Below are positions 17,421 to 39,668 of a stretch of 64,000 nt of DNA, piece after piece. The first letter of the stretch is position 1, and each line of letters opens with the position of its first letter. A program made the position numbers and the translations under genes. The stretch is from assembly GCF_024223415.1 (NCBI RefSeq), contig NZ_CP100500.1; one strand, 5' to 3'. A model generated the notes under the pieces. The model was not told where the DNA came from. It did not search any database and saw nothing but the letters and a program-made list of their open reading frames with translations. Source of the DNA: Escherichia coli. Lineage in GTDB: Bacteria > Pseudomonadota > Gammaproteobacteria > Enterobacterales > Enterobacteriaceae.

Positions 17421-17820
17421 CCGATATAGATGGGGAAGATGCTTTTATCCGGATTGGATCTATCGCGATGGTGCGAGTACCACTTGATGCAATGGAGCCT
17501 GTCGAGGCAGATGACGAGTAACAGAGCTCGGTATCTCAATCAGGACCTGATTGTCCTGGTTCGATGCCGAAAACCAGTGATTTTTCGTGTTGGTATCTGT
17601 GTTGGTATAGGATGGTGTTGTTTATTATTAACAATTTTAAATCATGAGGTTAAATCGCATGTTTGAGTCAGGCCTTCGCATCAATATCAAAACAATCAAT
17701 AAATAAGTCCTTTAACCTAGCCACGACCAATCATTGATCAACCACGAAATCCTCTCCGAAACACAGTCCCAATCCCTAAACCCTACGCTCAACATCGAAA
17801 CCCGCTTATCACCATCCCCC

Positions 17821-18690
17821 TCATCCCCTGAACACCTCCCGCCGGTGCCACGCCACAAACCCCTCCTGGGGATAGCATTCTTTCCCCATCGGCAAGGTAA
17901 TCGGCTTACCATCAAAATCCCAGAACAACCTGCCAACGATGCCTCCGCCGTTCACCGCCGGCGAAACCTGGATGCGCATATCCTCATCCAGACCAATGGA
18001 TCCTTTATCAAAATCCTTATGGTGAATCGCGCAGAGCGCCAGGCCGTTAGGGATTTCGCAGGGGCCGCCGTGCTGCTTCCACTTGATATGGGCCGCTTCC
18101 AGGGCGACGGAGGTATTATCATGGCGCATATTGAAGCCGCAGATAGCGCACTCATAGTTATAGGCGCGCAGCACCTGCTGGCGAAAATGCGGGTCGCGCT
18201 CTTTGCGGATCTGCAGCAGATCAAACCCCATCTCTTCAGCCAGTTCTTCCTGAATACTCTCCGGAAAGTGCGCCTCAAGGATCTGATGGGCGAGGGTATT
18301 GATCAGCTTCTTATTTCTGTTAAGTAACGCAAAATGCTGCTCATCAAAGCCGCCGGCGACGTGGCAGAGCTCCAGCTCTTTGCCGGGCGGCTGTCGGCTG
18401 CCCTGGGTTGAGCACTGTTCGCTGTTGTGTAGCTCCCAGAAGCCGTCGCCTTTCAGGCGCCAGAAGGGCATGTCCGGCCGGTACTGGCGGCGCTGCGGGC
18501 CAAAGCGTTCCAGCAGGCTATGCAGCTCATCACGTATCTCCGAGGCGTAGTCGAACATCCGCGCATGGCCGCGCTGGTATTGCGAGAGGACGTACAGCAG
18601 CAATAGTGGTTTATGCGGCGCACGCTGTTCGCCTTTGCGCCAGATGGTGATGTTCTCGATCGCGTGTTGCAGGGTCGTGCTGGAGGGCAT
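17821..18690 (-). CDS. HNH endonuclease with an N-terminal putative modified-DNA-binding domain (candidate type IV restriction enzyme)
   Basis: 290 aa from the ATG at 18690; C-terminal HNH motif ...YNYECAICGFNMRHDNTSVALEAAHIKWKQHGGPCEIPNGLALCAIHHKDFDKG...; N-terminal about 170 aa (...APHKPLLLLYVLSQYQRG...FWRLKGDGFWEL...) recalled as resembling sulfur-binding-domain-HNH proteins. Confidence 0.6.
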   Translation of the reverse strand: MPSSTTLQHAIENITIWRKGEQRAPHKPLLLLYVLSQYQRGHARMFDYASEIRDELHSLLERFGPQRRQYRPDMPFWRLKGDGFWELHNSEQCSTQGSRQPPGKELELCHVAGGFDEQHFALLNRNKKLINTLAHQILEAHFPESIQEELAEEMGFDLLQIRKERDPHFRQQVLRAYNYECAICGFNMRHDNTSVALEAAHIKWKQHGGPCEIPNGLALCAIHHKDFDKGSIGLDEDMRIQVSPAVNGGGIVGRLFWDFDGKPITLPMGKECYPQEGFVAWHRREVFRG

Positions 18691-18869
18691 AGCGTTACAT
18701 TGGCAGCTAAATAAATGCGATGATGCTCGCAAAATCCTTGCCGATCAACCTACCAGATGCGGCGATTCTACGTGGATCGCGATTTAATTATCACTGCCAG
18801 TTATTTGTTCGAAAAGACCATAGCTTTCTATTTATACTCAAGCTTCGCGCCATCAGATAGCTATGTCTT

Positions 18870-19508
18870 ATGAAAAAACTACCGGACCATTTATCCAGGG
18901 AATGCATCATCGCCGCCATTCGCGCTTACGATGCAGGCGTTGCGCATCAGTTTAAAAGCGCGCGTCTGTATGAGATCGAGTTTGAGGGGCGTCGGTATCC
19001 TTCAAAAGCCATCGTCGGGTTAGCGGCCACGCTTGCGACGGGAACGGAATTTACCCCGGCGGATTTCAGCGGGGGGATTAAATCAAAATGCGTGCGTCTG
19101 TTACTGGAGCAAGGATTTACGATCGCGTCGCAGGGCGCTGGCGATGACGAGGTTGCGCTTTTCCCCGATGAGGGGCAGACGACCATGGAGTACGTGGAAG
19201 GGGCGGCGTTGCAGGTGGTGGTCAATCGCTATGAGCGCGACCGTCAGGCTCGTCAGGCGGCGCTTCGCCTGCATGGCTGCCAGTGTCAGGTATGCGGTCT
19301 GGATATGGCCAGCCGCTATGGCGATATCGGCCAGGGCTTTATCCATATCCACCATCTCATCCCGCTGGCCGGGATAAAGCAGGACTACCGCCTGAACCCT
19401 GAAACCGATCTGATCCCGGTATGTCCCAACTGCCATGCGATGCTGCACCGGCGAGATCCGCCGTTTACCCCCGAAGAGCTGAAGGCCCGGCTGCGCCCCA
19501 CAGACTGA
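18870..19508 (+). CDS. HNH endonuclease with a distinct N-terminal domain of unknown function
   Basis: 212 aa; C-terminal zinc-finger HNH ...CQCQVCGLDMASRYGDIGQGFIHIHHLIPLAG...PVCPNCHAMLH...; divergent from 17821..18690 across a 179-bp intergenic region. Confidence 0.6.
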   Translation: MKKLPDHLSRECIIAAIRAYDAGVAHQFKSARLYEIEFEGRRYPSKAIVGLAATLATGTEFTPADFSGGIKSKCVRLLLEQGFTIASQGAGDDEVALFPDEGQTTMEYVEGAALQVVVNRYERDRQARQAALRLHGCQCQVCGLDMASRYGDIGQGFIHIHHLIPLAGIKQDYRLNPETDLIPVCPNCHAMLHRRDPPFTPEELKARLRPTD

Positions 19509-19552
19509 CATCCGACAGCGCTCGCTTTAATTACATCAAACACACCACAAAC

Positions 19553-19579
19553 CCCACGCTACCTTACCGGTAGCGTGGG
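19553..19579. terminator. Bidirectional stem-loop between convergent genes
   Basis: CCCACGCTACC-TTAC-CGGTAGCGTGGG between the stop at 19508 and the minus-strand stop at 19591. Confidence 0.5.
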
Positions 19580-19590
19580 CCCACTCTCTT

Positions 19591-21270
19591 TTACTTATCC
19601 CGCGTCTCGCCAGCCTCCCAGCTGTAGCTGCCATCGGCCGCTAAGCTATCGCCCAGCTCCTGATACTCGAACTGATAAAACTCAGCCTGGGTGCCGTACC
19701 CGGCGTAGTCTACCGCCGCCAGGCCGACGAACGCCCCGGTAAAGAACCCGCCGTAGCTCTGCAACACATAGTCATCGGACAGCACCGCGGCATCCAGCTG
19801 GACCGGGATCTCGGTGAACGTCACGCCATCGAAGCTGTATTCATAGCTGTAGGTCTGCTTGCGGACTTTGGTCCGGAACCAGACGTATTCCACGCCGTCC
19901 GGCACCTTGATGGCGTTATCTTTCAGGTACGACGTGTATTTCCCGCGGTTATTTTCGCCGACTTCGATGACCTTGCCGTTAATTTCATTCCAGGTCAGGA
20001 AGACGAAGCTCCAGTGGCGGTCGTTATAGTAATTCGTTAACCCGGCCATCTGCTGGTAGCTGAAGGGCTCGAATTTCACCTTCACCGCGGCGTCAAAATA
20101 GAAGGCCTGCCAGCGGCGGGCAATCAGCGACAGATCATGCGTATTGGCTAACGAGCCCTGGCCGATTAAGGTTAATTTGCCGTTACCGGTGGTGCCCATT
20201 TTGGCCGTAAACGGCACCCGCAGGGTATTCCAGTTCGGGTCGAGGGCTGGCGACGTAAAGTCATCCTGCTGGCTATTATCGCTGGCGCTTTCGGTGAAGA
20301 TGGCGTCTTTCGGTCCTTCGACGAAGGTTTTCCCGCCGTGACCGCCTTCAATACGCGGCCAGCCCTCGTCATCCCAGTACACTTTCTGGATCGCGGTTTC
20401 CCGGCCGAGGGTTGACCAGCCGCGCGGGTCGTAGATGGATTCCCCCGGGCGATTCCACGGCCGGGCGCAGAGCGAGGCGTAATACCATTCGCCTTCCGGG
20501 GTGGAGACCAGCGCGCCATGGCCCTGTTTCTGGATGTAGCTGTCCGGGGTGTCGACGTTGGTTAAGAACACGTCGCCCGGCTCGGTTTCAAAGCTGTCGG
20601 CCTCGAGGGTTTTCGACCGCGCCACCACCTCCTGGTGGGTAAACACGGTGCCGCCCTGGGCGGCAAACAGGTAGTAGTAGCCGTTCAGTTTATAGAGGTG
20701 CGGCCCCTCGACCAGCGCTACGGCGGTGCCGCGGTAGATGGTGCGCGCGGTTTCCGGCATTAACTTCAGCGTGTTGGTATCCAGCTCCGTTAAGGTAATG
20801 CCATCGAAGGGGTGATGGTACTCCCGGTGATCCCAGGTTTGCTGGACGATATATTTCCGGCCATCGTCGTCATGGAACAGCGAGGCGTCAAACCCGACTC
20901 CGTTCAGCTTGATCGGGTCGCTCCACGGGCCCCGAATATCCTTCGCGGTGGTCAGGTAGTTGGTCATGTCTTTGAAGGCGCCTTCGGTGACCTTCACATC
21001 GGTATACACCAACCAGAATTGCCCGTCGGCCCAGGAGAGCGCCGGCGCCCAAATGCCGCCGGAGGAGGGGTTGCCCTTCATGTCCAGCAGGGTGGTGGTG
21101 GAGAGCGGCGAAGGCAGCAGGTTCCAGTTTTTCAGGTCTTTCGACTCATGTAAACGCACGCCCGGAAACCACTCAAACGTCGAGTTGGCAATATAGTACG
21201 TATCCTCGACGCGAATAATACTGGGGTCGGCATTAAAGCCGCGTAATATCGGGTTTTGAATAAGTGACAT
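19591..21270 (-). CDS. xynB: Glycoside hydrolase family 43 beta-xylosidase (XynB-like)
   Basis: 559 aa; N-terminal GH43 five-bladed propeller motifs (...FNADPSIIRVEDTYYIANSTFEWFPGV...) plus C-terminal beta-sandwich; high GC. Confidence 0.85.
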   Translation of the reverse strand: MSLIQNPILRGFNADPSIIRVEDTYYIANSTFEWFPGVRLHESKDLKNWNLLPSPLSTTTLLDMKGNPSSGGIWAPALSWADGQFWLVYTDVKVTEGAFKDMTNYLTTAKDIRGPWSDPIKLNGVGFDASLFHDDDGRKYIVQQTWDHREYHHPFDGITLTELDTNTLKLMPETARTIYRGTAVALVEGPHLYKLNGYYYLFAAQGGTVFTHQEVVARSKTLEADSFETEPGDVFLTNVDTPDSYIQKQGHGALVSTPEGEWYYASLCARPWNRPGESIYDPRGWSTLGRETAIQKVYWDDEGWPRIEGGHGGKTFVEGPKDAIFTESASDNSQQDDFTSPALDPNWNTLRVPFTAKMGTTGNGKLTLIGQGSLANTHDLSLIARRWQAFYFDAAVKVKFEPFSYQQMAGLTNYYNDRHWSFVFLTWNEINGKVIEVGENNRGKYTSYLKDNAIKVPDGVEYVWFRTKVRKQTYSYEYSFDGVTFTEIPVQLDAAVLSDDYVLQSYGGFFTGAFVGLAAVDYAGYGTQAEFYQFEYQELGDSLAADGSYSWEAGETRDK

Positions 21271-21328
21271 TTCATTACACCTTTTAAAATGGAAAGTGAC
21301 GAATCGGTCTGATTTATAATTTTTTTAA

Positions 21329-22783
21329 CTACACGCGGATCTCATCCAGCTGACGGTTGATGTCGGTAACATGTTTATCGGAGATCGGATAAACCTGGAT
21401 AATCACCATCGAAATAGCGGCCAGCGCGATCGGGATCCACACCGCGGTCATAATGATCCCGTCGATGGCGCTGGCGCTCTGCACGGCGCCGCTTTCATTA
21501 AAGCCATACACCGCCAGCAGCCACAGCGGGATCGCGCCGCCGATGGTGAAGCCGATCTTGAAGAAGAGTCCCATAATGGCATTGATAATGGCGGCATTGC
21601 GTTTGCCAGATTTTAATTCGCCGTACGCGATGACTTCCGGTACCAGCGCCCACATAAAGCCGGTGGCGGAGGTTAAGCCCCACTGTTTAATAAAGGTGGC
21701 GATGTAGGCCAGCCACAGGGCGTCGTGCATCCCTTCGCGGGACCAGACGTAGGTCAGCAGTTCGCCGACGATAAACATGGCGAGGAACAGATGGAAGAAG
21801 CCTTTTTTACCAAAGATTTTTTTCAGTTTCGGCCAGAAAATCGGGAAGGCGATGCCGGGAATAGACGCGACGAGACCCACCGCGCCCATCCATTCGGAGT
21901 GGCCGACGACGTACTGGTTGAAGAAGCCGTTAACAGTGTTCATGAAGAACATGAAGGTAAAGGCCAGCATAAAGAACATGCCCAGAATAACCAGCGGGCG
22001 GTTATGTCGGAGCTCGTGGAAAAGGTCGGTGGTTTTGACGTTGGCGGTCTGCTCGGCGGTCGCGACAACGCGTTCTTTGGTGAATTTATAACAGATAAAC
22101 AGAGCCACCGCGCCGATGATCATATAGATGGCGTACACGCCAAACCAGGCGTAATTTGCCGACGGATCGGCATAATTCCCCAGATTCAGCTCAAGGCCAA
22201 AAAAGCCGGTGTCTTTCAGGCTGCGATCTTTCGGCGCCGCCATCTGCACAAACATCGGGAACAGGGTATAGACCAGCAGGTTGGCGCTGTTGGCCAGCAT
22301 CATGCGGGTACTGGTCAGTTTATCGATCGATTCCGGGTCGCGGGTCAGCGACGCATTCAGCGAGCCATAGGGAATATTGACTAAGGAATAAACCAGGTCC
22401 AGCGCCAGATAAATAATAAAGGCGAAAGCCACCGAACCTTTCACTCCGGGGATGGGCGCGAACAGTAATGCCGAGAGGATCACCAGCGGCACGCCGGCTC
22501 GTAACAGCCACGGACGATATTTCCCTGCCTTCGAGGTTCGTTTATCCACGTAGGTGCCGACCATCGGATCCCAAAACACGTTAATTATGCGGACAAAAAG
22601 AAAAATAAAGCCTGCCGTTGCCGTGCTGATGGTATTTACCGTCAGCATATGCAAAGCCAGAAAACCCCCAATTGTGCCGAAAACCAGGTTTTGCGCAAAG
22701 TCGCCCATGCCATAACCAATTCGTTCTCCACGGGTTAATTTATGATATTCATCATGCCGACTGTGCATTATGTTTTTACTCAT
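21329..22783 (-). CDS. Glycoside-pentoside-hexuronide (GPH) family cation symporter, xyloside transporter-like
   Basis: Polytopic membrane protein with GPH-family N-terminus (...RIGYGMGDFAQNLVFGTIGGF...); start chosen at MSKNIM; co-directional with the xylosidase. Confidence 0.8.
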   Translation of the reverse strand: MSKNIMHSRHDEYHKLTRGERIGYGMGDFAQNLVFGTIGGFLALHMLTVNTISTATAGFIFLFVRIINVFWDPMVGTYVDKRTSKAGKYRPWLLRAGVPLVILSALLFAPIPGVKGSVAFAFIIYLALDLVYSLVNIPYGSLNASLTRDPESIDKLTSTRMMLANSANLLVYTLFPMFVQMAAPKDRSLKDTGFFGLELNLGNYADPSANYAWFGVYAIYMIIGAVALFICYKFTKERVVATAEQTANVKTTDLFHELRHNRPLVILGMFFMLAFTFMFFMNTVNGFFNQYVVGHSEWMGAVGLVASIPGIAFPIFWPKLKKIFGKKGFFHLFLAMFIVGELLTYVWSREGMHDALWLAYIATFIKQWGLTSATGFMWALVPEVIAYGELKSGKRNAAIINAIMGLFFKIGFTIGGAIPLWLLAVYGFNESGAVQSASAIDGIIMTAVWIPIALAAISMVIIQVYPISDKHVTDINRQLDEIRV

Positions 22784-23194
22784 TCTAAGCAGACTCCGGT
22801 TTGTTTTGTGTAGGTGAAACACTTTCTGACACAGTTGACATGGAAGAATCTATTACGTTTTTAAATTAAGTAATTATGTTTTTTTACTTCTGTGATCCTC
22901 GAAGCAAAGGCCTGTATCACCTGCGTTGAGCCGCCATCCGCCGCTAATTTTTTGGCAGACAGGCAATGTGACAAAACCGGCATTTTAATTCGCTATGCCC
23001 ACCTGAATTCCCCAGGAAGTGTACTCTATACGCGCGCGAAGCGAGATATTTAAAATAGTTTTATTTGCGAGATGGCTCACATTTGAGCATTTTCTCAATC
23101 GCTGAGTGAAATAACGTAATTGAGCAACCGACGATGAGAATACACGATGTGTCACAGTTGTTAATTTTCGGCTTCCTCAATTTCGGAGTTCATC

Positions 23195-24514
<1,320 letters not shown>

Positions 24515-24523
24515 ATTTGGCTG

Positions 24524-24545
24524 ACATGCCCCTGCGGGGGCATGT
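24524..24545 (+). terminator. Stem-loop after xylA
   Basis: ACATGCCCC-TGC-GGGGGCATGT 10 bp after the xylA stop. Confidence 0.5.
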
Positions 24546-24844
24546 ATTCCGCCGTGTGCCCGCTGCCGGGAAATAGCGTTTATTTGTTCGTGTTGTATTT
24601 ATGCTGTCTGTGCCGAAAGGCTATCTGTTTGACTGTCTATAGAGGAACAATCCGCCGCGCGGATGGTTCTGCCATTGTGCCACCTTTTTAATATCAGTGA
24701 GGGAGGGCGAGTAGCGATAATTGTGTAATGCCTCTGTGACCGTACAAAATAAAAAATAATTTGTTCTGATGATAGCGACATATTCTGTCAGCTCAGAATA
24801 GGCTGGTTATTGTCTGAATAAAATTAACCTATATTGAGAAACTC

Positions 24845-25156
24845 ATGACAATGATAAAAAAACTTCCATTAACCATGGCGGTTATCGCCGCGTTTTTTCC
24901 GCTTACCTCTGTAATGGCGCAAGAATTTACTCAGGAACAGATCGACGCCATCGTCGCCAAAGCCGTTGATAAAGCGCTGGCCGAGCAAATTGACGCCTTG
25001 AAAGCCGCCGCCCGTGAATGCGGTCCGTTACCCGATGAGCCGTTTATTCAGATGGCGTTTCTTTCTCTGCCAGTGATCCCCGCGCTGAAACTAACCAGTC
25101 AGGGGCTATTTGATGGCGAGAAGTTTGCCTTCACCACGCTGGAAGTCACGGAATGA
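24845..25156 (+). pseudogene. 5' fragment of a LamB/ScrY-type porin gene fused to unrelated sequence
   Basis: First about 120 bp encode signal peptide plus [22 protein letters not shown], the same as the N-terminus of the porin at 30214; the rest has no porin similarity. Confidence 0.6.
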
Positions 25157-25352
25157 AAAAAAGACCGTATTAGCTGATTTACGGAAAATATGTACTCCAC
25201 AAGCGTCAATATCAGACGAGGCCTGGGAAAAGATAATGTTGTCTGATGAAAGTAATCAGCAGCACATCCGTGAGGCTATTGTGGCGATGGAACGCAATAA
25301 CCAGAACAATTACTGGGAAGCGTTAGGCAAGGTTGAATGCCCGGATATGTAG

Positions 25353-25376
25353 ACGTGAAGCTGCAGCTTCACGTCA
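25353..25376. terminator. Perfect palindrome downstream of the LacI-family regulator gene
   Basis: GACGTGAAGCTGCAGCTTCACGTC 13 bp beyond the regulator stop at 25389. Confidence 0.5.
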
Positions 25377-25388
25377 TACATTTAGCAC

Positions 25389-26345
25389 TTAACGTGAACG
25401 TACATCGGGAATAATTAAATCACCGCGCAGAACATATGAACCCAGCATCGTCTGCGTCTTATCGTTAAGCCAACTGACTATGCGGGCGGCCATTTCGTCC
25501 AGCGAATATTCTATCGCCGGAATGGTCGGTATCCCCGGAAGATGAACAGTACCCGCCAGACTAAATACCATAATGTCCTCAGGAACAGATTTATTAAACG
25601 CCTGCAATTGCGGTATCACCCGCTGCGCTTGCTGTTCATCAGCAACTAATAACGCATTAAAGTTCAGTGTTGAGGCGTTATTTAGCAGCTCCTGCAAAGC
25701 CACTGAGGAAGAGATTGCTTCCATAAAAACCAGATTACGGTTAAAGGGAAGAAAGTTTTTCTCCAGCGCGTGTTTATAGCCCAGTAAGACCTGGTCAGAA
25801 AATCCCATACCGTGTGGGTGGATGAGGGCGATTTGGCGTCTGTTCTGACTTATCAGATAGTTACAAGCGGTTTCAGTCGCGAATGTGTGATCGAACTGAA
25901 TACTGTTAACATCATTACCCGTCTCAAGGCAGTCCACCAGTATCACGTTTTCCTGATGAATATTCAGTGGGAAACGCGCACCAATAATCAGTACGTCATC
26001 ACACAAACCACAGCTCAGCTCATCAAGGGCGTTCTTTACCTCGGCTTTATTGCTGGCGAAGCGAAGAAGTAGATGTTTTTGATGCTGGCTGAGATGTTTT
26101 TCCAGAGCGTAAAGATAACCGGTGGTCTGATTAATGTTTTCCTGAGCACAAATTACACCGATACAGCCCGTAGATTGCGTCAGCAGTGACTGCGCAATGA
26201 CATTGGGACGATAGTTTAGCTCTTCGACGGCTTTCAATACCGCGAGACGGCTGGCTTCTTTAACACCACGCGATCCGCTCAACACCCGAGAAACCGTCGC
26301 TTTTGAAACGCCAGCCAAACGCGATACATCATTGATAGTAGACAT
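25389..26345 (-). CDS. LacI-family transcriptional regulator
   Basis: N-terminal HTH MSTINDVSRLAGVSKATVSRVLSG... and periplasmic-binding-protein-like effector domain; divergent from the PTS operon. Confidence 0.85.
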   Translation of the reverse strand: MSTINDVSRLAGVSKATVSRVLSGSRGVKEASRLAVLKAVEELNYRPNVIAQSLLTQSTGCIGVICAQENINQTTGYLYALEKHLSQHQKHLLLRFASNKAEVKNALDELSCGLCDDVLIIGARFPLNIHQENVILVDCLETGNDVNSIQFDHTFATETACNYLISQNRRQIALIHPHGMGFSDQVLLGYKHALEKNFLPFNRNLVFMEAISSSVALQELLNNASTLNFNALLVADEQQAQRVIPQLQAFNKSVPEDIMVFSLAGTVHLPGIPTIPAIEYSLDEMAARIVSWLNDKTQTMLGSYVLRGDLIIPDVRSR

Positions 26346-26636
26346 CATTCTCCCCTGACAGAGCGGCCCTGGCTCCCACAATCCTGAATTCCTGTTGGCT
26401 TAAATATTAGCCGTTCGCAGTATAACTGTTTCCGTTTTCTAATGGAAACCGATTTTCCATGGCATCTCAAAACTGAGCTAATAATGATAAAAATGTGAAC
26501 AGAGTCGAAATAATAACGCGACTTTATAGCGAAATCTGATAGCCGTCACAGTTTATGTTTCCATGAATGGAAACCGGTTTCCAAATGATATCAAATCAAT
26601 TGCGAAATAGATTTTTACATTCAGAGGATGTGTCAG

Positions 26637-26951
26637 ATGGTCAGGATTATGTTGTGTTGCTCTGCGGGGATGTCAACCAGTCTGCTGGTGAAAAAAATGG
26701 TCGAGGCCGCAGAAAGCAGAGAGCTATCGGTAGAGATAGATGCCTACGGAGTTTCCGAATTTGATATTCAGTTTCCAAAATATCAGGTGGTACTACTCGG
26801 ACCGCAGGTAAAGTATATGTTAAACATGCTCGCAGAAAAGGCCGCCCCCCAGGGAATACCCGTAAAAGCCATTGATATGGCGGACTACGGAATGCAACGG
26901 GGTGACAAGGTGCTGGATTACGCTCTGTCGCTCATTGCAGCGACACATTAA
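26637..26951 (+). CDS. PTS lactose/cellobiose-family EIIB component
   Basis: About 105 aa, MVRIMLCCSAGMSTSLLVKKM... with the active-site Cys motif typical of ChbB-like EIIB. Confidence 0.85.
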   Translation: MVRIMLCCSAGMSTSLLVKKMVEAAESRELSVEIDAYGVSEFDIQFPKYQVVLLGPQVKYMLNMLAEKAAPQGIPVKAIDMADYGMQRGDKVLDYALSLIAATH

Positions 26952-26964
26952 GAAAGGTGTCATT

Positions 26965-28296
26965 ATGAGTTCGTTATATCAATCAATGGTTGCCGTTATT
27001 GAACAATCCATCACACCGCTTGCCGGGAAGCTGGGGCAGCAAAAATATGTGATTGCCATCCGGGACGGTTTTACTGCCGCTCTACCGTTTATGATCATCG
27101 GTTCGTTTATGCTGGTGTTCATTTTCCCACCGTTTTCGGCTGAAACAACCAACAGTTTTGCCCGAGGCTGGCTGGATTTCTCCGCTACCTACCGTGAACA
27201 GCTAATGTTGCCATTTAACCTCAGCATGGGGGTGATGACTTTCTTCATCTCAGTGGGGATCGGTGCCAGCCTTGGGCGACAGTTTAATCTCGATCCGATT
27301 ATGTCTGGCTTGCTGGCATTTATGGCATTTTTACTGGTCGCAGCGCCTTATGCTGACGGCAAAATATCGACTCAATATCTTTCCGGGCAAGGTATTTTCA
27401 CGTCTCTGATTACCGCGATTTATGCCACTCGTGTATACGCCTGGTTAAAACAACACAACGTGACAATCCGCTTACCCAAAGAAGTCCCTACTGGTGTGGC
27501 GCGTTCCTTTGAGATCCTTATCCCGGTTCTGGTGGTCATTGCTACGCTACACCCACTGAATCTGTTTATTGAGGCCCAGACTGGAATGATTATTCCTGAG
27601 GCGATCATGCATCTTTTAGCGCCACTGGTCTCTGCCTCTGATTCCCTGCCTGCAATTCTGCTGTCTGTTCTGATGTGTCAGATTTTCTGGTTCGCAGGTA
27701 TTCATGGTTCACTGATTGTAACAGGCATCATGAATCCCTTCTGGATGGCAAACCTGTCGGCAAATCAGGCAGCTCTTGCCGCTGGCGCAGCACTTCCTCA
27801 CGTTTATCTGCAAGGGTTTTGGGATCACTACCTGCTGATTGGTGGTGTCGGCTCGACGCTACCGCTGGCGTTATTGCTGTTACGCAGCCGCGTTGCTCAC
27901 TTGCGTACCATCGGAAAAATGGGCGTTGTCCCCAGTTTTTTCAACATCAATGAGCCTATTCTGTTCGGTGCGCCGATCATCATGAATCCGATGTTGTTTA
28001 TCCCGTTCGTTTTCGTGCCAATTATTAACGCCATCCTGGCCTATACCGCGACCAGACTGGGCTGGCTGGCACAGGTTGTCTCATTAACGCCATGGTCCAC
28101 ACCTGCTCCAATTGGTGCCTCCTGGGCTGCCAACTGGGCACTTAGCCCAGTGGTGATGTGCATTATCTGTATGGTGATGTCGGCGCTGATGTACCTCCCA
28201 TTCTTGCGCGCCTATGAACGCTCATTGCTGAAAAGCGAAGAACAAAAAGCGCAGGATACCGTCTCCGTGGCCAATGCAGCCCGTAGCAACTCATAA
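26965..28296 (+). CDS. PTS lactose/cellobiose-family EIIC permease
   Basis: 443 aa polytopic membrane protein; RBS AAAGG before the ATG at 26965; ChbC/CelB-like. Confidence 0.85.
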   Translation: MSSLYQSMVAVIEQSITPLAGKLGQQKYVIAIRDGFTAALPFMIIGSFMLVFIFPPFSAETTNSFARGWLDFSATYREQLMLPFNLSMGVMTFFISVGIGASLGRQFNLDPIMSGLLAFMAFLLVAAPYADGKISTQYLSGQGIFTSLITAIYATRVYAWLKQHNVTIRLPKEVPTGVARSFEILIPVLVVIATLHPLNLFIEAQTGMIIPEAIMHLLAPLVSASDSLPAILLSVLMCQIFWFAGIHGSLIVTGIMNPFWMANLSANQAALAAGAALPHVYLQGFWDHYLLIGGVGSTLPLALLLLRSRVAHLRTIGKMGVVPSFFNINEPILFGAPIIMNPMLFIPFVFVPIINAILAYTATRLGWLAQVVSLTPWSTPAPIGASWAANWALSPVVMCIICMVMSALMYLPFLRAYERSLLKSEEQKAQDTVSVANAARSNS

Positions 28297-28316
28297 TGAA
28301 TCAAGGAGTAAGAACA

Positions 28317-29714
28317 ATGAGATACCGTTTTCCCGACAACTTCTGGTGGGGGAGTGCCTGCTCTGCGCTGCAAACCGAAGGGGATAGTCTGAACGGCGGC
28401 AAAAGCCAAACCACCTGGGATGTATGGTTCGAACGCCAGCCAGGCCGCTTCCATCAAGGTATTGGCCCGGCGAACACATCAACCTTTTATCAACACTGGC
28501 AAAAAGATATTGCCCTGCTGAAACAGTTAAAACATAACAGTTTTCGCACCTCGTTAAGCTGGTCTCGCCTGATACCAGACGGTACTGGTGACGTAAATCC
28601 TGAAGCGGTGGCGTTCTATAACAATGTCATCGATGAGCTGCTGGCGCAGGGCATCGCACCGTTTATCACCTTGTTCCACTTTGATATGCCGATGGTGATG
28701 CAGGAAAAAGGTGGCTGGGAGAGTCGGGAAGTCGTAGAAGCTTTTGGTGAATATGCCCGTACCTGCTTTGAACTGTTCGGCAACAGAGTGAAGCACTGGT
28801 TTACCTTTAACGAACCGATTGTGCCGGTAGAGGGCGGTTATTTATATGACTTCCACTATCCGAACGTTGTTGATTTTAAACGTGCTGCGACAGTGGCTTA
28901 CCATACCGTTCTTGCGCACGCCACGGCAGTTCGGGCATTTCGTCAGGGTAATTTTGAAGGTGAAATTGGCGTGGTGCTCAACCTGACGCCTTCTTATCCG
29001 CGCTCGCAAAATCCGGCTGATGTTAAAGCCGCACACTGCGCTGACCTTCTGTTTAACCGCAGCTTCCTCGATCCGGTGCTAAAAGGGGAATACCCGGCAG
29101 ACCTTGTAGCATTACTGAAAGAGCACGATCAGTTGCCGCAATGCCAGCCTGACGATAGTCAGCTAATCGCCGACGGAAAAATCGACCTGCTGGGGATAAA
29201 TTATTATCAACCCCGACGAGTTAAATGCCGGGATAGCGCCGTAAACCCCAATGCCCCCTTTATGCCGGAGTGGTTATTTGACTATTACGAGATGCCTGGG
29301 CGAAAAATGAATCCTTATCGGGGATGGGAAATTTATGAACCCGGTATTTACGATATCATCACCAACCTTCGCGATAATTATGGTAATCCTCGTTGTTTTA
29401 TTTCTGAAAATGGGATGGGTGTAGAAAACGAGCAACGCTTTATTCAGGAAGGGCAAGTCAACGATATCTATCGTATTGAATTTGTCGCTGAACATTTAAA
29501 ATGGCTGCATAAAGGAATTAGCGAAGGGTGTAATTGCCTTGGCTATCATATGTGGACGTTTATCGATAACTGGTCATGGCTTAATGCTTATAAAAATCGA
29601 TATGGATTTGTTCAGCTTGATCTGGAAACGCAAACACGCACGATTAAAAAAAGTGGTGAGTGGTTTGCGACAGTTGCAGAAAATAACGGTTTTGATTGCG
29701 AGAAACAAAAATGA
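28317..29714 (+). CDS. Glycoside hydrolase family 1 6-phospho-beta-glucosidase
   Basis: MRYRFPDNFWWGSACSALQTEG...; GH1 motifs FNEP and ENG present (TFNEPIV, ISENGMG); RBS AGGAG before the ATG at 28317. Confidence 0.9.
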   Translation: MRYRFPDNFWWGSACSALQTEGDSLNGGKSQTTWDVWFERQPGRFHQGIGPANTSTFYQHWQKDIALLKQLKHNSFRTSLSWSRLIPDGTGDVNPEAVAFYNNVIDELLAQGIAPFITLFHFDMPMVMQEKGGWESREVVEAFGEYARTCFELFGNRVKHWFTFNEPIVPVEGGYLYDFHYPNVVDFKRAATVAYHTVLAHATAVRAFRQGNFEGEIGVVLNLTPSYPRSQNPADVKAAHCADLLFNRSFLDPVLKGEYPADLVALLKEHDQLPQCQPDDSQLIADGKIDLLGINYYQPRRVKCRDSAVNPNAPFMPEWLFDYYEMPGRKMNPYRGWEIYEPGIYDIITNLRDNYGNPRCFISENGMGVENEQRFIQEGQVNDIYRIEFVAEHLKWLHKGISEGCNCLGYHMWTFIDNWSWLNAYKNRYGFVQLDLETQTRTIKKSGEWFATVAENNGFDCEKQK

Positions 29715-30013
29715 TCGAACTAGAAGATGCGGTTATGGAAATAATCGTCAATGCCGGCCAGTCACGCAGCCTCTGTTTTGAAGCGTTACACGCGGCACGT
29801 GCCGGGAACTTTGATGAAGCCAAACAGCTGCTACGTGAAGCTGACGGTTATTCGCGTCAGGCTCACCATATGCAAACCAAATTGATCGAACAGGATGCTG
29901 GTGAGGCCCGACAGCCAATGACATTAATTATGGTACATGCACAGGATCATTTAATGACATCAATGCTGGCACGAGAATTAGCAGAAGAAATAATTCATCT
30001 TTATCAAAGATAA
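29711..30013 (+). CDS. PTS lactose/cellobiose-family EIIA component
   Basis: 100 aa helical protein MIELEDAVMEIIVNAGQSRS...; overlaps the glucosidase stop. Confidence 0.8.
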   Translation: MIELEDAVMEIIVNAGQSRSLCFEALHAARAGNFDEAKQLLREADGYSRQAHHMQTKLIEQDAGEARQPMTLIMVHAQDHLMTSMLARELAEEIIHLYQR

Positions 30014-30213
30014 TTGATTAATGCTTATGAGGAACATCTATTTGATAAAATAAAACCTCTGCCTTACCCAAGAATAAAATAGATAAACCACCCTGTTTCG
30101 GTAGTTAAAAATAAGCCGAAACAGGCTGCTTATTATCATAAAACAAATTAATACACACCTTATATTTATTATGCCCAACGCATAATGAATTATAACGTGT
30201 GCGTGAGATAATT

Positions 30214-31593
30214 ATGAAAAAGATAAAAACACTTCCAGTTACCCTGGCGGTTATTGCCGCTTTGTACTCAATATCTGCCCAGGCTCAGGAATTTACTCAG
30301 GAACAAATAGACGCCATTGTGGCAAAAGCCGTCGATAAAGCATTAGCCGAAAGGCAAGAAAAAATGGATGCCGCGGCAGCGAAAAAAGTGGATGTGATTA
30401 ACGAACCGGAAAGTGCTGCGCAGTCTCCGGATATGGCAATTCCCTTTGGCGTGAAATTTAGTGGTTATGCCCGTTATGGGGCTCATTTTCAAAGCGGCGA
30501 TCAAAAATATGTTGCTGTAGACGGCTCCTATAATGGTGCATCTGCAATTGGTCGTCTGGGGAACGAAGGTAATGGCGGAGAGTTTCAGTTATCAAAAGCC
30601 TTCAAGAGCGATAACGGCGCAATCTGGGATGTCAATGTCATGATTGATCACTGGGGCGACGAAGTTAACCTGAAGAAGGCCTACGTCGGCGTCACCAACG
30701 TGCTGGAATCCAATCCCAACGCCTATATCTGGGCCGGCCGCGACTTCCACCAGCGTCCGCAACAGGGGATCAACGACTACTTCTGGATGAACCACGACGG
30801 CCAGGGCGCCGGGGTGAAGAACTTTGATATCGGCGGCGTGCAGTTCGACGTGGCGGCGGTGTCGCAGGTGAAATCCTGTAGCCCGGAAGTGATGGCCGAC
30901 GAGACCAACCCGTCGCGTATCACCTGTACCGGCAGCTCCGACACCGGGGACAACGGCCACTACGCGCTGACCACCAAAACCCACAACATCAAGGCCGGGC
31001 CGATCGACGTCGAGGTGTACGCCAACTACGGCTTTGACTCGAAGGCGGTGGACAGCGACGCGCGTCTCGAAGCCTGGCAGGGCGGCCTGGTGCTGAGCCA
31101 CACCAACGACAGCGGGGTGAACAAGGTGATCCTGCGCTACTCCGATAACTCGGATAACAGCGTCTACAACAAAACCGACGACCTGACCACGGTCTACGCC
31201 AGCTTCGAGGGCAGCCATAAGTTCACCCAGCAGGCGCAGGTGGAATATCTGCTGGCCTTCCACGACTACGACAACGGCAAAGATAATACCGACAACCGCA
31301 AAAACTACGGTGCCATCGTGCGGCCGATGTACTTCTGGAACGACGTGCACTCCACCTGGCTGGAAGCGGGCTACCAGCGCGTGGACTACGACCAGGGCGG
31401 GGATAACCACGGCTGGAAGCTGACGCTGTCGCAGAACATCGCCATCGGCATGGGGCCGGAGTTCCGTCCGATGCTGCGCTTCTACGTGACCGGCGGTCAG
31501 GTGGACAACGAGCATACCGCTAAGGTCAACGGCACCAAAGACCAGCAGCTGGATTCGCTGAACGTCGGCGGGATGTTTGAGGCGTGGTTCTGA
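30214..31593 (+). CDS. Carbohydrate-specific outer-membrane porin (LamB/ScrY/BglH family) with N-terminal coiled-coil extension
   Basis: Signal peptide, coiled-coil [34 protein letters not shown], beta-barrel ending ...GGMFEAWF; the 5' 450 bp are AT-rich and the rest GC-rich. Confidence 0.8.
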   Translation: MKKIKTLPVTLAVIAALYSISAQAQEFTQEQIDAIVAKAVDKALAERQEKMDAAAAKKVDVINEPESAAQSPDMAIPFGVKFSGYARYGAHFQSGDQKYVAVDGSYNGASAIGRLGNEGNGGEFQLSKAFKSDNGAIWDVNVMIDHWGDEVNLKKAYVGVTNVLESNPNAYIWAGRDFHQRPQQGINDYFWMNHDGQGAGVKNFDIGGVQFDVAAVSQVKSCSPEVMADETNPSRITCTGSSDTGDNGHYALTTKTHNIKAGPIDVEVYANYGFDSKAVDSDARLEAWQGGLVLSHTNDSGVNKVILRYSDNSDNSVYNKTDDLTTVYASFEGSHKFTQQAQVEYLLAFHDYDNGKDNTDNRKNYGAIVRPMYFWNDVHSTWLEAGYQRVDYDQGGDNHGWKLTLSQNIAIGMGPEFRPMLRFYVTGGQVDNEHTAKVNGTKDQQLDSLNVGGMFEAWF

Positions 31594-31669
31594 TGCGATA
31601 GCGTTGTCGAAGGAGCGTTCCCGGCTGGCGCTACGCTTAGCCGGGCTACGACTGGTGCGCTCCATTTAT

Positions 31670-31900
31670 GCCGGATGGCGGCATACATGCCTTATCCGGC
31701 CTACGTTTCTGAGGAGGCCTGCGGGATACCCCCCAGGCCCGGCAGGCGCAGCGCCGCCGGGCAGGACACTTCAAGCTCCATACCTGTGGTTGTGCCGGAT
31801 GGCGGCATAAATGCCTTATCCGGCCTACGTTCCTGAGGAGGCCTGCGGGATCCCCTCCCAGGCCCGCGCAAGCGCAGCGCCGCCGGGCAGCTGGCCCAGG
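31670..31900. repeat. Two tandem REP/palindromic-unit-containing repeats (about 125 bp each)
   Basis: GCCGGATGGCGGCATA(C/A)ATGCCTTATCCGGCCTACG... occurs twice (31670.. and 31795..) with about 90% identity between the porin and ybgA genes. Confidence 0.8.
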
Positions 31901-31905
31901 TTCCC

Positions 31906-32865
31906 TCAGTTCACCGTCAGGCGCAGGGCAAGATCCTGCGGGTAGGGGTCAAAATAGTTCTGCGCCTGCAGGTAGCGATCCGGATACTCGGCCAGATAGT
32001 GCTTAAGCAGCGTCAGCGGCGCGAGGATCGGCAGCAGCCCGGCGCGATAGTTGAGGATCACCTCCCGCAGCTCGCCGCGCTGGCGGCTGTTCAGCTGGTC
32101 GCGGAAATAACCCTGAATATGCATCAGCACGTTGGTGTGGTTTTTCCGCGAGGCGGGCCGCTTGAGGATCGCCATCAGCTTTTCGCGATAGACCTCGAAG
32201 AAAGCCTCCAGATCCTCCCATTCATGCAGCGAGGCGACGAAGGGGACGATCTCGCGGTAGCCCGCCTGGTGGTGAGCCAGCAGCTGCAGCTTGTAGCGGC
32301 TGTGAAAGGCCAGCAGGCCGTGGCGGGTCAGGCCGCGGGCGCGCAGGGCGTTGAGTTCATGCAGGGCGAAGACGCGCTCGACAAAATTCTCCCGCAGCAG
32401 CGGATCGTGCAGCCGGCCATCCTCTTCCACCGGAAGCCACGGGTAGCGCGCCATCAGGGCGCCGGTAAACAGCCCCACGCCTTCCTTACGCCCGCGATTG
32501 CCTTTTTCATCATACAGCCGCACGCGCTCCATCCCGCAGCTCGGCGATTTGGCGCAGACGATAAAGCCCGACAGCTCGCCCAGGGTTGCCAGATGGGCGT
32601 TGGCGAAATCGGCCATCTTCTCCGTCACATCCTCGTGCGGGGCGTGGCTGAAGCGCATGCGGATCTCCCCGACCGGGGTCTGCACCAGCCGGAGCGCCGG
32701 GCGGGGAACGGGCAGGCCGATCGCCATCTCCGGGCAGACGGGCTTAAACGCCACCCACTGCGCGAGCTCATCCATCACAAAGCCCATACGCTTATGCCCG
32801 CCGTCGAATCGCACGGCTGAGCCGGTTAAACATCCGCTGATCCCAATGACAGGTTGCGTGTTCAT
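31906..32865 (-). CDS. ybgA: DUF1722-family protein YbgA
   Basis: 319 aa, near-colinear with E. coli YbgA as recalled (...GGHKRMGFVMDELAQWVAFKPVCPEMAIGLPVPRPALRL...SPSCGMERVRLYDEKGNRGRKEGVGLF...). Confidence 0.9.
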   Translation of the reverse strand: MNTQPVIGISGCLTGSAVRFDGGHKRMGFVMDELAQWVAFKPVCPEMAIGLPVPRPALRLVQTPVGEIRMRFSHAPHEDVTEKMADFANAHLATLGELSGFIVCAKSPSCGMERVRLYDEKGNRGRKEGVGLFTGALMARYPWLPVEEDGRLHDPLLRENFVERVFALHELNALRARGLTRHGLLAFHSRYKLQLLAHHQAGYREIVPFVASLHEWEDLEAFFEVYREKLMAILKRPASRKNHTNVLMHIQGYFRDQLNSRQRGELREVILNYRAGLLPILAPLTLLKHYLAEYPDRYLQAQNYFDPYPQDLALRLTVN

Positions 32866-33413
32866 GGCGCTGTCCTCGCTTCTGCTGTGGTTCGGGTAAA
32901 GAAAAGGGTCACGGTGGCCACCGTAATGCCGAATTTCTTCATCTCGGTTTTGTTAAACAAATGGCTGCCGTCCTGCAGGAACATCCAGTCGTCAAAGTGC
33001 AGCAGCCACCGGCTGCCGCTGGCCTCGACGTTCATGCTGTAGCGCCAGTGAAAGGCATTGCCTGCCGCCTGGCCGCTGGCCACGCCTTCGATATCCCCGG
33101 CGGTGCCCTGATAATGGTTATCGCCGGTGCGGCGAATGCGCCACACCCGCTGCTGTTTCTCGCCATCGTCATAGACAAAGCGCTCATGGAGCGTCAGGGT
33201 GTCGCCGACGACGTCGCCATCGATCGCTACATGGAAGCGGCGCAGCTGTTTACCGCGGCGATCCTGCACCATCCCCCACGCCTCGGTTCGACCCTGAAAA
33301 TAGTGGAAGATGTCGAGGGCGGGCTGCTGCTGCCGGTACTCGGTGACCTCGGTGCTGCAGCCGGCGAGCATCAGCATCAGCAGCGCCAGGCCACGGGTCA
33401 GAATGCGTTTCAT
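32862..33413 (-). CDS. Lipoprotein, possibly DUF3833-like
   Basis: 183 aa from the ATG at 33411..33413 with RBS GGAGG; lipobox MKRILTRGLALLMLMLAGCS; the longer annotated ORF 32862..34007 is a GC-rich read-through artefact. Confidence 0.65.
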   Translation of the reverse strand: MKRILTRGLALLMLMLAGCSTEVTEYRQQQPALDIFHYFQGRTEAWGMVQDRRGKQLRRFHVAIDGDVVGDTLTLHERFVYDDGEKQQRVWRIRRTGDNHYQGTAGDIEGVASGQAAGNAFHWRYSMNVEASGSRWLLHFDDWMFLQDGSHLFNKTEMKKFGITVATVTLFFTRTTAEARTAP

Positions 33414-33934
33414 GGTGTACCTCCGATCAACTGCTGACGCAGTTCGGGATAAGTGGTGCGCGGATCGAGCCAGATGGCGAGAAATCGGGTGCTGAACGCC
33501 GCCGACTGGTGCGGGCCGAGCGGGGTAAAGGCGGTCTGCGCGGCGCTGGAGCGGTACCAGAACTGCCCCTCGCCGCCGCTGACCACGAACGCCAGCTGGC
33601 TGCCCGACGCAACGTCCGGCCAGATCCCCTGCAGCATGCGCAGCCAGGCTTCGCTGCGCGGCTCCTGCTGCAGAATGCCCTGCGCCTGCCACTGGTCGCG
33701 GGTGGCCTCCACCAGCGCCTCGCGATCGATGTCGCGCCGGTAGGTGATGATCAGCGCCCGATCCTGCTGCGGGCCGGCATACCGGCCATTGGGCGTGCGC
33801 AGCTGTGAGTGATAGACGGTGAACGGCCCCCAGGTGAGGGTCGCCTCGCCGACGCGGCGCCACGTCAGCCAGTCGGCGGCGTGGGCCGCCGGGGCGAGGG
33901 CGCTCAGCCACAGCAGTAACAGGGCGAATCTCAT
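33410..33934 (-). CDS. Secreted periplasmic protein, possibly chalcone-isomerase-like
   Basis: 174 aa with signal peptide MRFALLLLWLSALAPAAHA; RBS GGGGAGG; stop overlaps the lipoprotein start. Confidence 0.6.
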   Translation of the reverse strand: MRFALLLLWLSALAPAAHAADWLTWRRVGEATLTWGPFTVYHSQLRTPNGRYAGPQQDRALIITYRRDIDREALVEATRDQWQAQGILQQEPRSEAWLRMLQGIWPDVASGSQLAFVVSGGEGQFWYRSSAAQTAFTPLGPHQSAAFSTRFLAIWLDPRTTYPELRQQLIGGTP

Positions 33935-34125
33935 TTTTGCCTCCCCATCCCCAGATGGAACAACAGCATGAGCACCAGCCAGCCGCAGGCCATGGCGGCC
34001 ACGGCAAGCGCCGTCGGTACCAGCAGGGTCACGAACTCCCCCTCTTCGGCGCAGAACGAGATTTCCCTGGCGGCATAGAATTCGCCGAAGGTTTTGGTCA
34101 CCTGTTCCAGAACCAGTTTTGACAT
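33931..34125 (-). CDS. Small membrane protein
   Basis: 64 aa with one strongly hydrophobic segment (VTLLVPTALAVAAMACGWLVLMLLF); stop overlaps the next start. Confidence 0.4.
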   Translation of the reverse strand: MSKLVLEQVTKTFGEFYAAREISFCAEEGEFVTLLVPTALAVAAMACGWLVLMLLFHLGMGRQK

Positions 34126-36299: not shown

Positions 36300-37104
36300 G
36301 AAGTTATGTGATTGTTGCTTCTGAAAGTGATATTTTATGTTGTTAAAATGTAAAGTAATAATACAATGAGCTATCCATGATGGGGTTCTGTAAATAAACA
36401 AAACACTCTCTTCAATTCTGCTCACCTTCGGTATTTGTGTATCATCACTGGCTACTGATAAAAACAGAACCGTCAGTTTTCCACGATGTGAAGGGCAGGA
36501 ATCATCGGCTGTTGCAGCCAGCGTCAAACGGGACTATCTCCAGAAACAGGTGCTTCACTGGAAAGATGACTAGGTGATCTTCAGTCAGCAGCATCCTGTT
36601 GTCTGGGTGAATCTTCGTGAGCTGGTAAGTAAAAGTGATAATTTAGTCACAGTGCATCTCACCGCCCGGGGGAAGAAAGCCGATATTCAGTATCGGGTGC
36701 GCATTGACTGTAAGAACGAAAACGCTATCTGGCAGCGCCAGAGATGAACGTATGGAGATAATCACAGAGTATGAACAAAAGGACTCTACATGTTCATTAT
36801 GACTAAAAAACGCTGTTTTATTTTACGTTGCTGTCATAACGTGTTTATCTCAATTTTCGGGAACATGTTCTTAGCGGTTAGACTGGCCCCCTGAATCTCC
36901 TGCGTTTGAAGGACAGTAACAGGTTAAGTGATAACAGATGTATGAAAATATAGAGATACATCCAAGGAAGAGCCACTTTTGCGCCGTTCGTGACAGTTTT
37001 GTCATGTCCTTGCTCCGGCCTGGTTTTATGTTCATAAGTCCTTCTTCACCAGTATCTTTGTAAACCTTCACCCAGTGCCAGATAATGGTTTCATTTGATA
37101 TATT

Positions 37105-37325
37105 AAACTGTGTAGTGGCCTAGCGCATGGTAAGTTCTTCACTCAAACCTTCAGGACAACTGTCAGTCGAAACTCAGGAGAGCCGCGGTCATTTTGCCAT
37201 GTAATACCATCAATACCGTGGAGTTGCCAGCCCTTGACCCAGCATCGCTCTGATGTTTCTTCAACACCAAAACGTTCAGCGGTACGACGTGTACCATCGT
37301 GTCCGGCAATATAATGATTAACTAC
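37105..37325 (-). pseudogene. IS3-family (IS150-group) OrfA remnant
   Basis: Reverse-strand translation AVVNHYIAGHDGTRRTAERFGVEETSERCWVKGWQLHGIDGI... resembles IS150 OrfA residues about 13-70; no start codon, truncated. Confidence 0.5.
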
Positions 37326-37797
37326 AGCTTATTCGGTTTAGAGAAAATATTTTGGCTTTGCCATAAAAACTAACCTTAATCAGTTGGATGTCCAACTTTT
37401 GGAGGGAGAGTCCAACGATGGTACAGGATTTATTCATGTTAATTTTTCACAAACTCCTTTATTCGTGTGATGTTAATCACAAAATACCAAAGAGAACGTT
37501 GAAAAAATAATGATACATTGTAAAAGATATATTAATTAATTTTTCATAATTTTATTATATATGCTGCATGTCAATTATTTATATACCAAAAACCGAACAA
37601 AAATATTTATTATAGGTATTATGAAATAACCTTTCCATATTGTTTATTTTAATGCAATCAGCACAGATTACTTCAAAAATATAATTAGATGCATGAAAAG
37701 GGAGAAACAATATATTTTATTGTTTAAGATATTTTGTTCAACATGTATGCTGAGAGATAAACTTATCGATACTTAAAAAATCCGAAAAGGAGGAATA

Positions 37798-39357: not shown

Positions 39358-39668
39358 AGTCAATCATACATATCATAATGGAGAATATTATTCTCCATTT
39401 CCAGGCTGAATCAATATTAAACCCATGCAGCCATAAAAACTTTAGCATTTTAAGTGTCAGGATGTTTCTATGTAAAAATCACAATAATTTACACAACACA
39501 AATAAATATATAGTTGATTACATTGAAGATTGCAATCACAATGTAATTAAATAGAAAATCAATTGTATGACTCCGGCTCAATGCCGACTTAACATCTGTA
39601 TGCTGAGGTAAGTTTACGCTTCCGACTTTCTGTTATTTTGGTGATTATATTTTCAGGGGAAATTAAAA

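Follow-up and report, generated by a model that had tools for sequence, protein, structure and literature searches.

The goal of this analysis was to determine how a carbohydrate porin gene of Escherichia coli came to have two compositions, and how a second porin 5' end came to lie on the far side of a neighboring sugar-uptake cassette. The DNA examined, hereafter the window, is a 64,000-nucleotide stretch of contig NZ_CP100500.1 (assembly GCF_024223415.1); the porin gene occupies positions 30214..31593, the second 5' end begins at 24845, and genes of a phosphotransferase system (PTS) lie between them. An earlier note, made from the letters alone, had read this arrangement as a fusion of two genes and as a cassette bracketed by direct repeats. 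Our approach was to search for parents by megablast of positions 24400..31900 against 5426 complete E. coli genomes and to align the window with the parental loci. The porin of the adeD/uhpT accessory locus (reference locus L010) is called E, and the 460-aa porin that follows xylA in a Klebsiella-like block (reference locus L009) is called K. The reading that we favor, with a probability of roughly 85%, is that a 5,679-bp segment of the adeD/uhpT cassette replaced part of porin K, with a homeologous exchange at its right end and a microhomology join at its left end.

The porin open reading frame (ORF), on the plus strand, encodes a 459-aa protein of the LamB family. When the GC content of third codon positions (GC3) was calculated in 30-codon windows, values of 0.23–0.50 were obtained up to ~30600 and of 0.77–0.97 from ~30640 to the stop codon. 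Nucleotides 1–450 of the gene had a GC content of 0.464 and a GC3 of 0.413 (62/150), whereas nucleotides 451–1380 had values of 0.608 and 0.877 (272/310); the Fisher p value for the GC3 contrast was 1.6e-24. The earlier note's description of a gene that is AT-rich for about its first 450 bp and then abruptly GC-rich was borne out by the sliding GC3 values, and its figure of 450 bp was accurate; the uniform composition that it had named as the contrary outcome was not what we measured (GC3 of 0.41 versus 0.88). For the 5' and 3' parts, respectively, GC3 was 0.42 and 0.52 in porin E, 0.72 and 0.88 in porin K, and 0.41 and 0.88 in the window gene. The composition jump in the hybrid is present because each part keeps the composition of its parent.

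In a three-way alignment of the porins, every informative site was E-type up to 30663, the last E-specific site, and K-type from 30675, the first K-specific site, which upheld the claim that two genes had been fused. The interval between these sites, GTTAACCTGAA (30664..30674, plus strand), is an 11-bp block identical in both parents; it is the crossover interval, and the switch across it is in register and in frame. To its left, the E-derived 5' part of the gene (codons 1–150; 30214..30663, plus strand) has only E-type informative sites and is 97–100% identical to L010 and 65–80% identical to L009; the AT-rich spacer upstream of it (30014..30213) is also E-derived. To its right, the K-derived 3' part (30675..31593, plus strand) is 100% identical to porin K of L009, and identity to the porin K locus is 100% from 30717 to past 31675. 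The two parents themselves share ~78% nucleotide identity, with protein identities of 78% in the N-terminal part and 80% in the C-terminal part. The halves, compared separately as the earlier note had advised, each matched a different parent, and none of the 120 best database representatives combined the two types. An apparent K-type conversion patch at 30637 was rejected as such; it reflects an I142 variant private to the L010 reference, and residue 142 is V, as in the window, in 94 of the 95 E-type proteins. We conclude that the window porin is a recombinant of two genes, both of whose parents have been found.

The left junction is of a different kind. The second porin 5' end is a stump of porin K (24845..24984, plus strand) with the start codon, the signal peptide, and the start of the N-terminal extension. 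It comprises nucleotides 1–140 of the 1383-nucleotide gene and is identical over them to intact porin K; it starts 330 bp past the xylA stop codon (24514), and the native region upstream of it (24515..24844) is intact. The match of the window to L009 (99.8%) ends at 24984, which is porin K nucleotide 140. A three-way comparison of the window, L009, and L010 showed that the join lies at a 10-bp microhomology, CGCTGGCCGA (24975..24984, plus strand), that is common to porin K nucleotides 131–140 and adeD nucleotides 1586–1595, with no similarity on either side. Beyond it follows a 3' remnant of the adenine deaminase gene adeD (24985..25156, plus strand; NCBIfam NF007457, profile positions 518–588 of 588, E = 3e-31) in frame with the porin stump, so that the ORF 24845..25156 is a 103-aa fusion of the stump and the last 57 codons of adeD. 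We conclude that the left join is a product of illegitimate, non-homologous recombination. The stump ORF has retained the upstream region of porin K together with its signal peptide but ends in the AdeD tail; it is probably a dead remnant and not a gene, judging from this structure.

Counted from the microhomology, the adeD share of the insert is the last 182 bp of that gene, and it is followed by a remnant of a yicS-family gene (25146..25352, plus strand; NF041639 YicS_fam, E = 3e-29). The same partial yicS gene is annotated by RefSeq at the native locus L010 (6172–6378). The adeD remnant is 99.6% identical to adeD of cassette-bearing E. coli and ~96% identical to that of cassette-less strains. 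Because it carries 182 bp of adeD and the yicS remnant, the insert came from an E. coli adeD/uhpT locus. This continuation of the ORF at 24845 into adeD and then yicS had gone unnoticed in the earlier note, which had proposed that the cassette was inserted or exchanged by homologous recombination within a porin gene, between repeats of a porin 5' end that included a 120-bp fragment at 24845. That fragment is a true porin 5' end, and its identity to porin K disposes of the idea of an unrelated small gene; its size is not 120 bp but 140 coding nucleotides plus the ribosome-binding region. The two 5' ends did not arise as a duplication through the insertion, nor does each of them mark a homologous crossover. 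They belong to different, orthologous porins that are 78–84% identical: 24835..24984 and 30204..30350 have ~78% identity overall, and a separate repeat search found two blocks with 82% and 84% identity. The cassette does sit inside a porin gene, as proposed, but of its two junctions only the right one depended on homology.

Relative to the intact island, the net change is the presence of 5,679 bp in place of porin K nucleotides 141 to ~453 (~313 bp). The insert (24985..30663) contains the adeD 3' tail, the truncated yicS, a regulator gene, PTS and glycosidase genes, and nucleotides 1–450 of porin E. It is 99.38% identical to L010 (33 mismatches), to which 24975..31593 of the window can be aligned. 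At L010 the order is adeD, truncated yicS, LacI, IIB, IIC, GH1, IIA, porin E, DUF1198, uhpT. The cassette occupies its native locus in 25 of the 5426 complete E. coli genomes, always between adeD/truncated yicS and DUF1198/uhpT. A transposon or insertion-sequence origin was ruled out, since no transposase ORF was found in 24985..30663 and no terminal inverted repeats were found at the insert boundaries. The truncated yicS-family gene already precedes the cassette at the native locus, directly after adeD, and thus a gene remnant was left as well when the cassette itself came to lie between adeD and uhpT.

The flanks of the insert are collinear with the intact locus of L009 and L020, and other E. 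coli islands hold the same block uninterrupted. L009 (EC0585) is an integrase-bearing island at the tRNA-Sec gene selC with GH43, MFS, xylA, an intact 460-aa porin K, and DUF1722 genes; over 22001..24984 the window is 99.83% identical to it. The left part of the GC-rich block (17780..24984) holds genes for ScoMcrA-like and HNH nucleases, GH43, and MFS_2, followed by xylA (23195..24514, plus strand; xylose isomerase, 439 aa, GC3 of 0.71) and the porin K 5' end. From ~17780 to 24984 it is 99.8–99.9% identical to the E. coli islands L009, L020, L021, and L027, and 98.5–99% identical to loci L022–L025 from genomes of 4.9–5.4 Mb. The part of the block beyond the porin (31594..34031) is 100% identical to L009 as far as L009 goes, 99.8–99.9% identical to L020, L021, and L027, and 97–98% identical to L022–L025. 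Over ~17780..24984 and 30664..34031 together, the window is 97–99% identical to L022, L024, and L025; where intergenic repeats differ, the right-flank comparison starts at 31669 instead of 30664. The exact intact K porin was found on at least 557 contigs under the name "MULTISPECIES [Enterobacteriaceae]", and the 90% clusters of xylA and porin K carry mostly Klebsiella names. The exact XylA protein is named "MULTISPECIES: xylose isomerase [Escherichia]", and the other named members of its 90% cluster are Klebsiella. Judging from these names and identities, an E. coli island has captured a Klebsiella-like block, to which the GC-rich DNA belongs, and the AT-richer DNA between the two parts of that block is Escherichia DNA.

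A look-up of the exact GH1 protein led to two contigs whose left context differs from that of the window, L016 and L017 (assemblies GCA_051128155.1 and GCA_025832935.1). Only 2 of the 5,679 bp of their insert are mismatched to the window (99.965% identity), and the E/K crossover in L017 is the same one. Both contigs keep 1.17 kb of adeD, from nucleotide 596, where it meets a transketolase gene, truncated and belonging to a different E. coli island, at a microhomology of 12–15 nucleotides, CGATAAACTGGA (L016 3802–3851; L017 3400–3450). In window coordinates, L016 ends at 30662 and L017 at 30790; the latter is 30664 + 127 − 1, that is, 127 nucleotides (a common assembler k) counted from the first possibly K-derived base. 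Because these contigs stop at the crossover, the K 3' part is expected to occur twice in those genomes, which suggests that they still hold an intact porin K. Since L016 and L017 keep more donor DNA than the window does, they cannot derive from the window arrangement. It is probable from this comparison that the E/K crossover happened once and came first, and that the window's left junction was formed later.

The marks observed are one in-register homeologous exchange, two independent microhomology joins, and the loss of ~313 bp of target. At the right end of the insert, an in-register homeologous exchange between E and K inside the 11-bp block produced an intact, in-frame hybrid porin, and at the left end an illegitimate join at the 10-bp microhomology fused the porin stump in frame to the adeD tail. 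The left join could have come about by either of two routes. In the first, a segment bearing the hybrid porin would have entered an intact xylA-porin K island by homology-facilitated illegitimate recombination (HFIR), anchored at one end in the identical K 3' flank and joined at the other through the 10-bp microhomology. In the second, a microhomology-mediated deletion would have occurred in an L017-type genome that held both copies in direct orientation. Three Logan contigs (L006–L008) start inside the adeD remnant, at 25105 and 25125, and the adeD homology with cassette-less E. coli reaches only 25162–25167. Because these contigs break near the limit of that homology, a native adeD 3' end seems still to be present, which suggests that the insert is a copy and not one half of a reciprocal swap.

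HFIR has been documented experimentally in E. coli at ~3e-10 per recipient (PMC3240628, 2011). Three features of its products were found here: an in-register homologous junction, a microhomology junction, and deletion of the recipient DNA between them. For a fourth, incoming linear foreign DNA as the substrate, there are indirect hints, namely the closer identity of the adeD remnant to adeD of cassette-bearing strains (99.6% versus ~96%) and the contig breaks that suggest a second, native adeD 3' end. As in HFIR, one insert end lies in homologous or homeologous sequence and the other at a short, GC-rich 10-bp microhomology; 5.7 kb of foreign DNA was gained and the recipient DNA between the junctions (~313 bp of porin K) was lost. 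The window event differs in being natural and read from genome comparison, whereas HFIR was observed as transfer. The porin crossover, if itself the anchor, is ~78% identical over its surroundings and only 11 bp long at the exchange, far weaker than the experimental anchors; in addition, an intragenomic deletion could yield the same end product.

Other explanations of the locus were weighed against these results. Chimeric contigs can arise at repeats, and one draft in which porin reads of E were wrongly joined to those of K, or porin reads to adeD reads, would give such a gene; yet both junctions were exact in 10 loci (L001–L005 and L011–L015) from at least seven assemblies, and the right junction was exact also in three assemblies of Logan read sets. 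The sequence shared at the junctions is only 10–11 bp, far under any assembler k-mer and thus too short for a de Bruijn mis-join, and no identical block of the parents exceeds 20 bp; we give an artefact a negligible probability. The contigs of window-type assemblies run straight through the junctions, and therefore each of those genomes has a single copy of the cassette and of the K 3' part. We give just as little credence to a single natural allele of heterogeneous composition, for example one with an AT-rich signal peptide or N-terminal extension region. The K parent is itself somewhat less GC-rich in its 5' part, as the GC3 values above show, but neither parent has the jump seen in the window, and identity changes from E (97–100%) to K (100%) within 11 bp. 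Furthermore, the 120 best representatives in the database are all purely E-type (95) or purely K-type (25); no other E/K chimera was found among them, and their 90% clusters could hide some.

A Campbell-type single crossover, in which a circular cassette with a porin 5' fragment integrates and leaves a true direct duplication, comes closest to the earlier picture, and two porin 5' ends do flank the cassette in direct orientation. We consider it very improbable: the left copy should then be a hybrid of the K 5' end with E and continue as a porin, but it is pure K to nucleotide 140 and then adeD; the copies are 78–84% identical and each matches a different parent at 99–100%; and the loss of ~313 bp of porin K is not expected from such an insertion. 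A reciprocal intrachromosomal exchange, in which two successive inversions (at the porins, then at the 10-bp microhomology) swapped segments of the island and the native locus, has somewhat more to recommend it and is still unlikely. In EC0585 the xylA-porin K island is at selC and the E cassette belongs at adeD/uhpT, loci that we take to be ~10–20 kb apart on the K-12 map, with the porins inverted relative to each other. Against this exchange, the 64-kb window holds no tRNA, no adeD 5' part, and no uhpT, and the native cassette is rare, at 0.5% of complete E. coli genomes. The predicted protein with a K 5' and an E 3' part is not on record in an exact-match look-up, a weak negative. Moreover, the Logan contigs break in the adeD remnant, as they would if the genome had another, native adeD 3' end, and in the L016/L017 genomes there seems to be a duplication of the K 3' part, which is not an expected product of such a swap.

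Several points also weigh against replacement of part of porin K by the adeD/uhpT segment as we have described it. Efficient RecA exchange in E. coli is usually quoted as needing ~23–27 bp of perfect identity. The 11-bp crossover block falls below that figure, as does the longest nucleotide block common to the E and K porins (20 bp; there are 18 blocks of at least 11 bp). RecA acting with relaxed mismatch repair, a phage recombinase, or template switching may account for the right junction. The state of the native adeD/uhpT locus in carriers is read only from contig ends. The order of events rests on L017 keeping more of adeD, and both arrangements could descend independently from an unsampled ancestor. 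The Klebsiella origin rests on the source names of clusters and on 97–99% nucleotide identity to loci in genomes of 4.9–5.4 Mb. Finally, that the hybrid porin works is an assumption based on the intact frame and on persistence of the gene among isolates.

A Chi site, GCTGGTGG, lies at 30747..30754 on the minus strand, 73 nucleotides to the right of the crossover, and is kept in both parental porins. A Chi-stimulated crossover was rejected, because the orientation of this site favors exchange to its right and not at 30664. The window contains five Chi sites versus 2.2 expected, which is not significant.

The exact chimeric protein is recorded as "carbohydrate porin [Escherichia coli]" on 16 contigs, and the collection lists it in 33 blocks; assembly GCA_900482235.1 is a further carrier. 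Of the 5426 complete RefSeq E. coli genomes searched, none covers more than 88% of 24400..31900, so none has the full arrangement. The hybrid keeps the E signal peptide, a ~55-residue N-terminal extension, and the first part of the barrel; the remainder is K barrel. Pfam PF02264 (LamB family) matches the exact protein, and residues 80–459 align to maltoporin (PDB 1MPR and 1AF6; E = 9e-16); the extent of the PDB match at that E value is also given as residues 81–311. Assignment as maltoporin LamB proper was rejected (NCBIfam NF006860, 142.7 bits versus a cut-off of 394), and the protein is a member of the family only; LamB does not have the ~55-residue extension. Because the hybrid is the last gene of a lactose/cellobiose-family (Lac/Cel) PTS cluster, it is most likely still the outer-membrane channel of that cluster, and on this genetic context it probably serves the cluster's beta-glucoside-type substrate.

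Mosaic genes formed by interspecies homeologous recombination include penicillin-binding-protein genes of Streptococcus and Neisseria and outer-membrane protein genes. The window porin resembles them in its single, clean, in-frame switch between diverged orthologues of different genera, seen as a jump in composition and identity. It differs in being a by-product of an operon insertion rather than of allelic replacement at one locus, and in showing no sign of selection on the protein itself. The event fits known classes (mosaic genes and insertions by one-sided homology and microhomology); it is a clean instance of them and no new kind of system. A stronger claim would be that this is a datable natural insertion by one-sided homology, with both parents and an L017-type intermediate in circulation, in which an exchange within only 11 bp of identity, between genes ~22% diverged, re-coupled an orphan Klebsiella barrel to an Escherichia PTS operon; we regard that claim as improbable. 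For recombination biology, the locus is a natural setting for questions about exchange at ~78% identity, with both parents known and an intermediate probably so, and it illustrates how a mosaic E. coli island is assembled from Klebsiella DNA and an accessory Escherichia operon through homeologous and microhomology junctions. If substrate or phage-receptor properties of the hybrid have changed and selection acted on them, the locus would amount to a domain swap carried out by nature on an outer-membrane sugar channel. In annotation terms, the entry "carbohydrate porin" stands for a hybrid between genera and the 103-aa ORF for a porin::adeD fusion remnant.

The genes between the porin 5' ends were found as the earlier note had listed them. 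They are a LacI-family regulator (25389..26345, minus strand; 318 aa, or 330 aa from an upstream TTG), which matches NF007075 and Pfam LacI; PTS IIB (26637..26951, plus strand; NCBIfam TIGR00853, under its cut-off); PTS IIC (26965..28296, plus strand; TIGR00410, 365 bits versus a cut-off of 236); a GH1 (phospho-)beta-glucosidase (28317..29714, plus strand; TIGR03356, under its cut-off); and PTS IIA (29711..30013, plus strand; TIGR00823, under its cut-off). The operon 26637..30013 belongs to the lactose/cellobiose family, with agreement from the Pfam families: it has separate IIB, IIC, and IIA genes together with a GH1 phospho-glycosidase. Its GC3 is 0.39–0.55. Scans for promoters and terminators gave nothing above the shuffled expectation. 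Like other Lac/Cel beta-glucoside operons, the cassette has a carbohydrate porin as its last gene and a divergently transcribed regulator.

The E. coli bgc operon has a similar parts list (BgcR, IIB, IIA, IIC, and phospho-beta-glucosidase; PMC3585215). Its activator BgcR is described there as being of the GntR type, whereas the window cassette has a LacI-family regulator, and on this basis identification of the cassette as bgc was rejected; the native adeD/uhpT locus also sets it apart. No published description of this cassette was found in a targeted literature search. At L018 4573–9380 (porin P0001, named Klebsiella pneumoniae) LacI, IIB, IIC, and IIA genes stand with a K-type porin and without GH1; this cluster has ~75% nucleotide identity to the window cassette. 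Because the L018 cluster contains a K-type porin, E and K are orthologous parts of the same type of operon, and the porin K beside xylA looks like an orphaned copy of such an operon's porin.

The part of the block to the right of the porin contains REP-like repeats (31666..31890), a DUF1722/2-thiouracil desulfurase-like gene (31906..32865, minus strand), a DUF3833 gene, a 174-aa ORF, and a truncated DUF2878 gene. The repeats, just downstream of the porin, are two REP/BIME-like units (REP, repetitive extragenic palindrome; BIME, bacterial interspersed mosaic element) of ~100 nucleotides each that are 88% alike; L022 and L025 carry several more copies at that spot, and the copy number thus varies between genomes. 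The block ends at 34031 inside the DUF2878 gene, of which a 64-aa ORF (33931–34125) is left, compared with 161 aa in related loci. GC content falls from 0.67 to 0.51 at this position, another illegitimate boundary of the mosaic island. In L022–L026, from genomes of 4.9–5.4 Mb, the block continues with a CFA-synthase cluster, an AcrB-like gene, and others.

At the left edge of the block (~17800–19500) lie two HNH genes, one of which encodes a ScoMcrA-like (phosphorothioated-DNA-binding) restriction endonuclease; both accompany the GH43-MFS-xylA-porin genes, in E. coli islands as well as in the related genomes of 4.9–5.4 Mb. Farther to the right, a 1274-aa Peptidase_S6 (SPATE-type) autotransporter gene begins at ~39669 after a very AT-rich stretch (GC content of 0.35–0.39). 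A split YebF-like gene and an AbgT-family transporter gene are found nearby, and the content of this region (37000–40000 and from ~39669 onward) is typical of a pathogenicity island.

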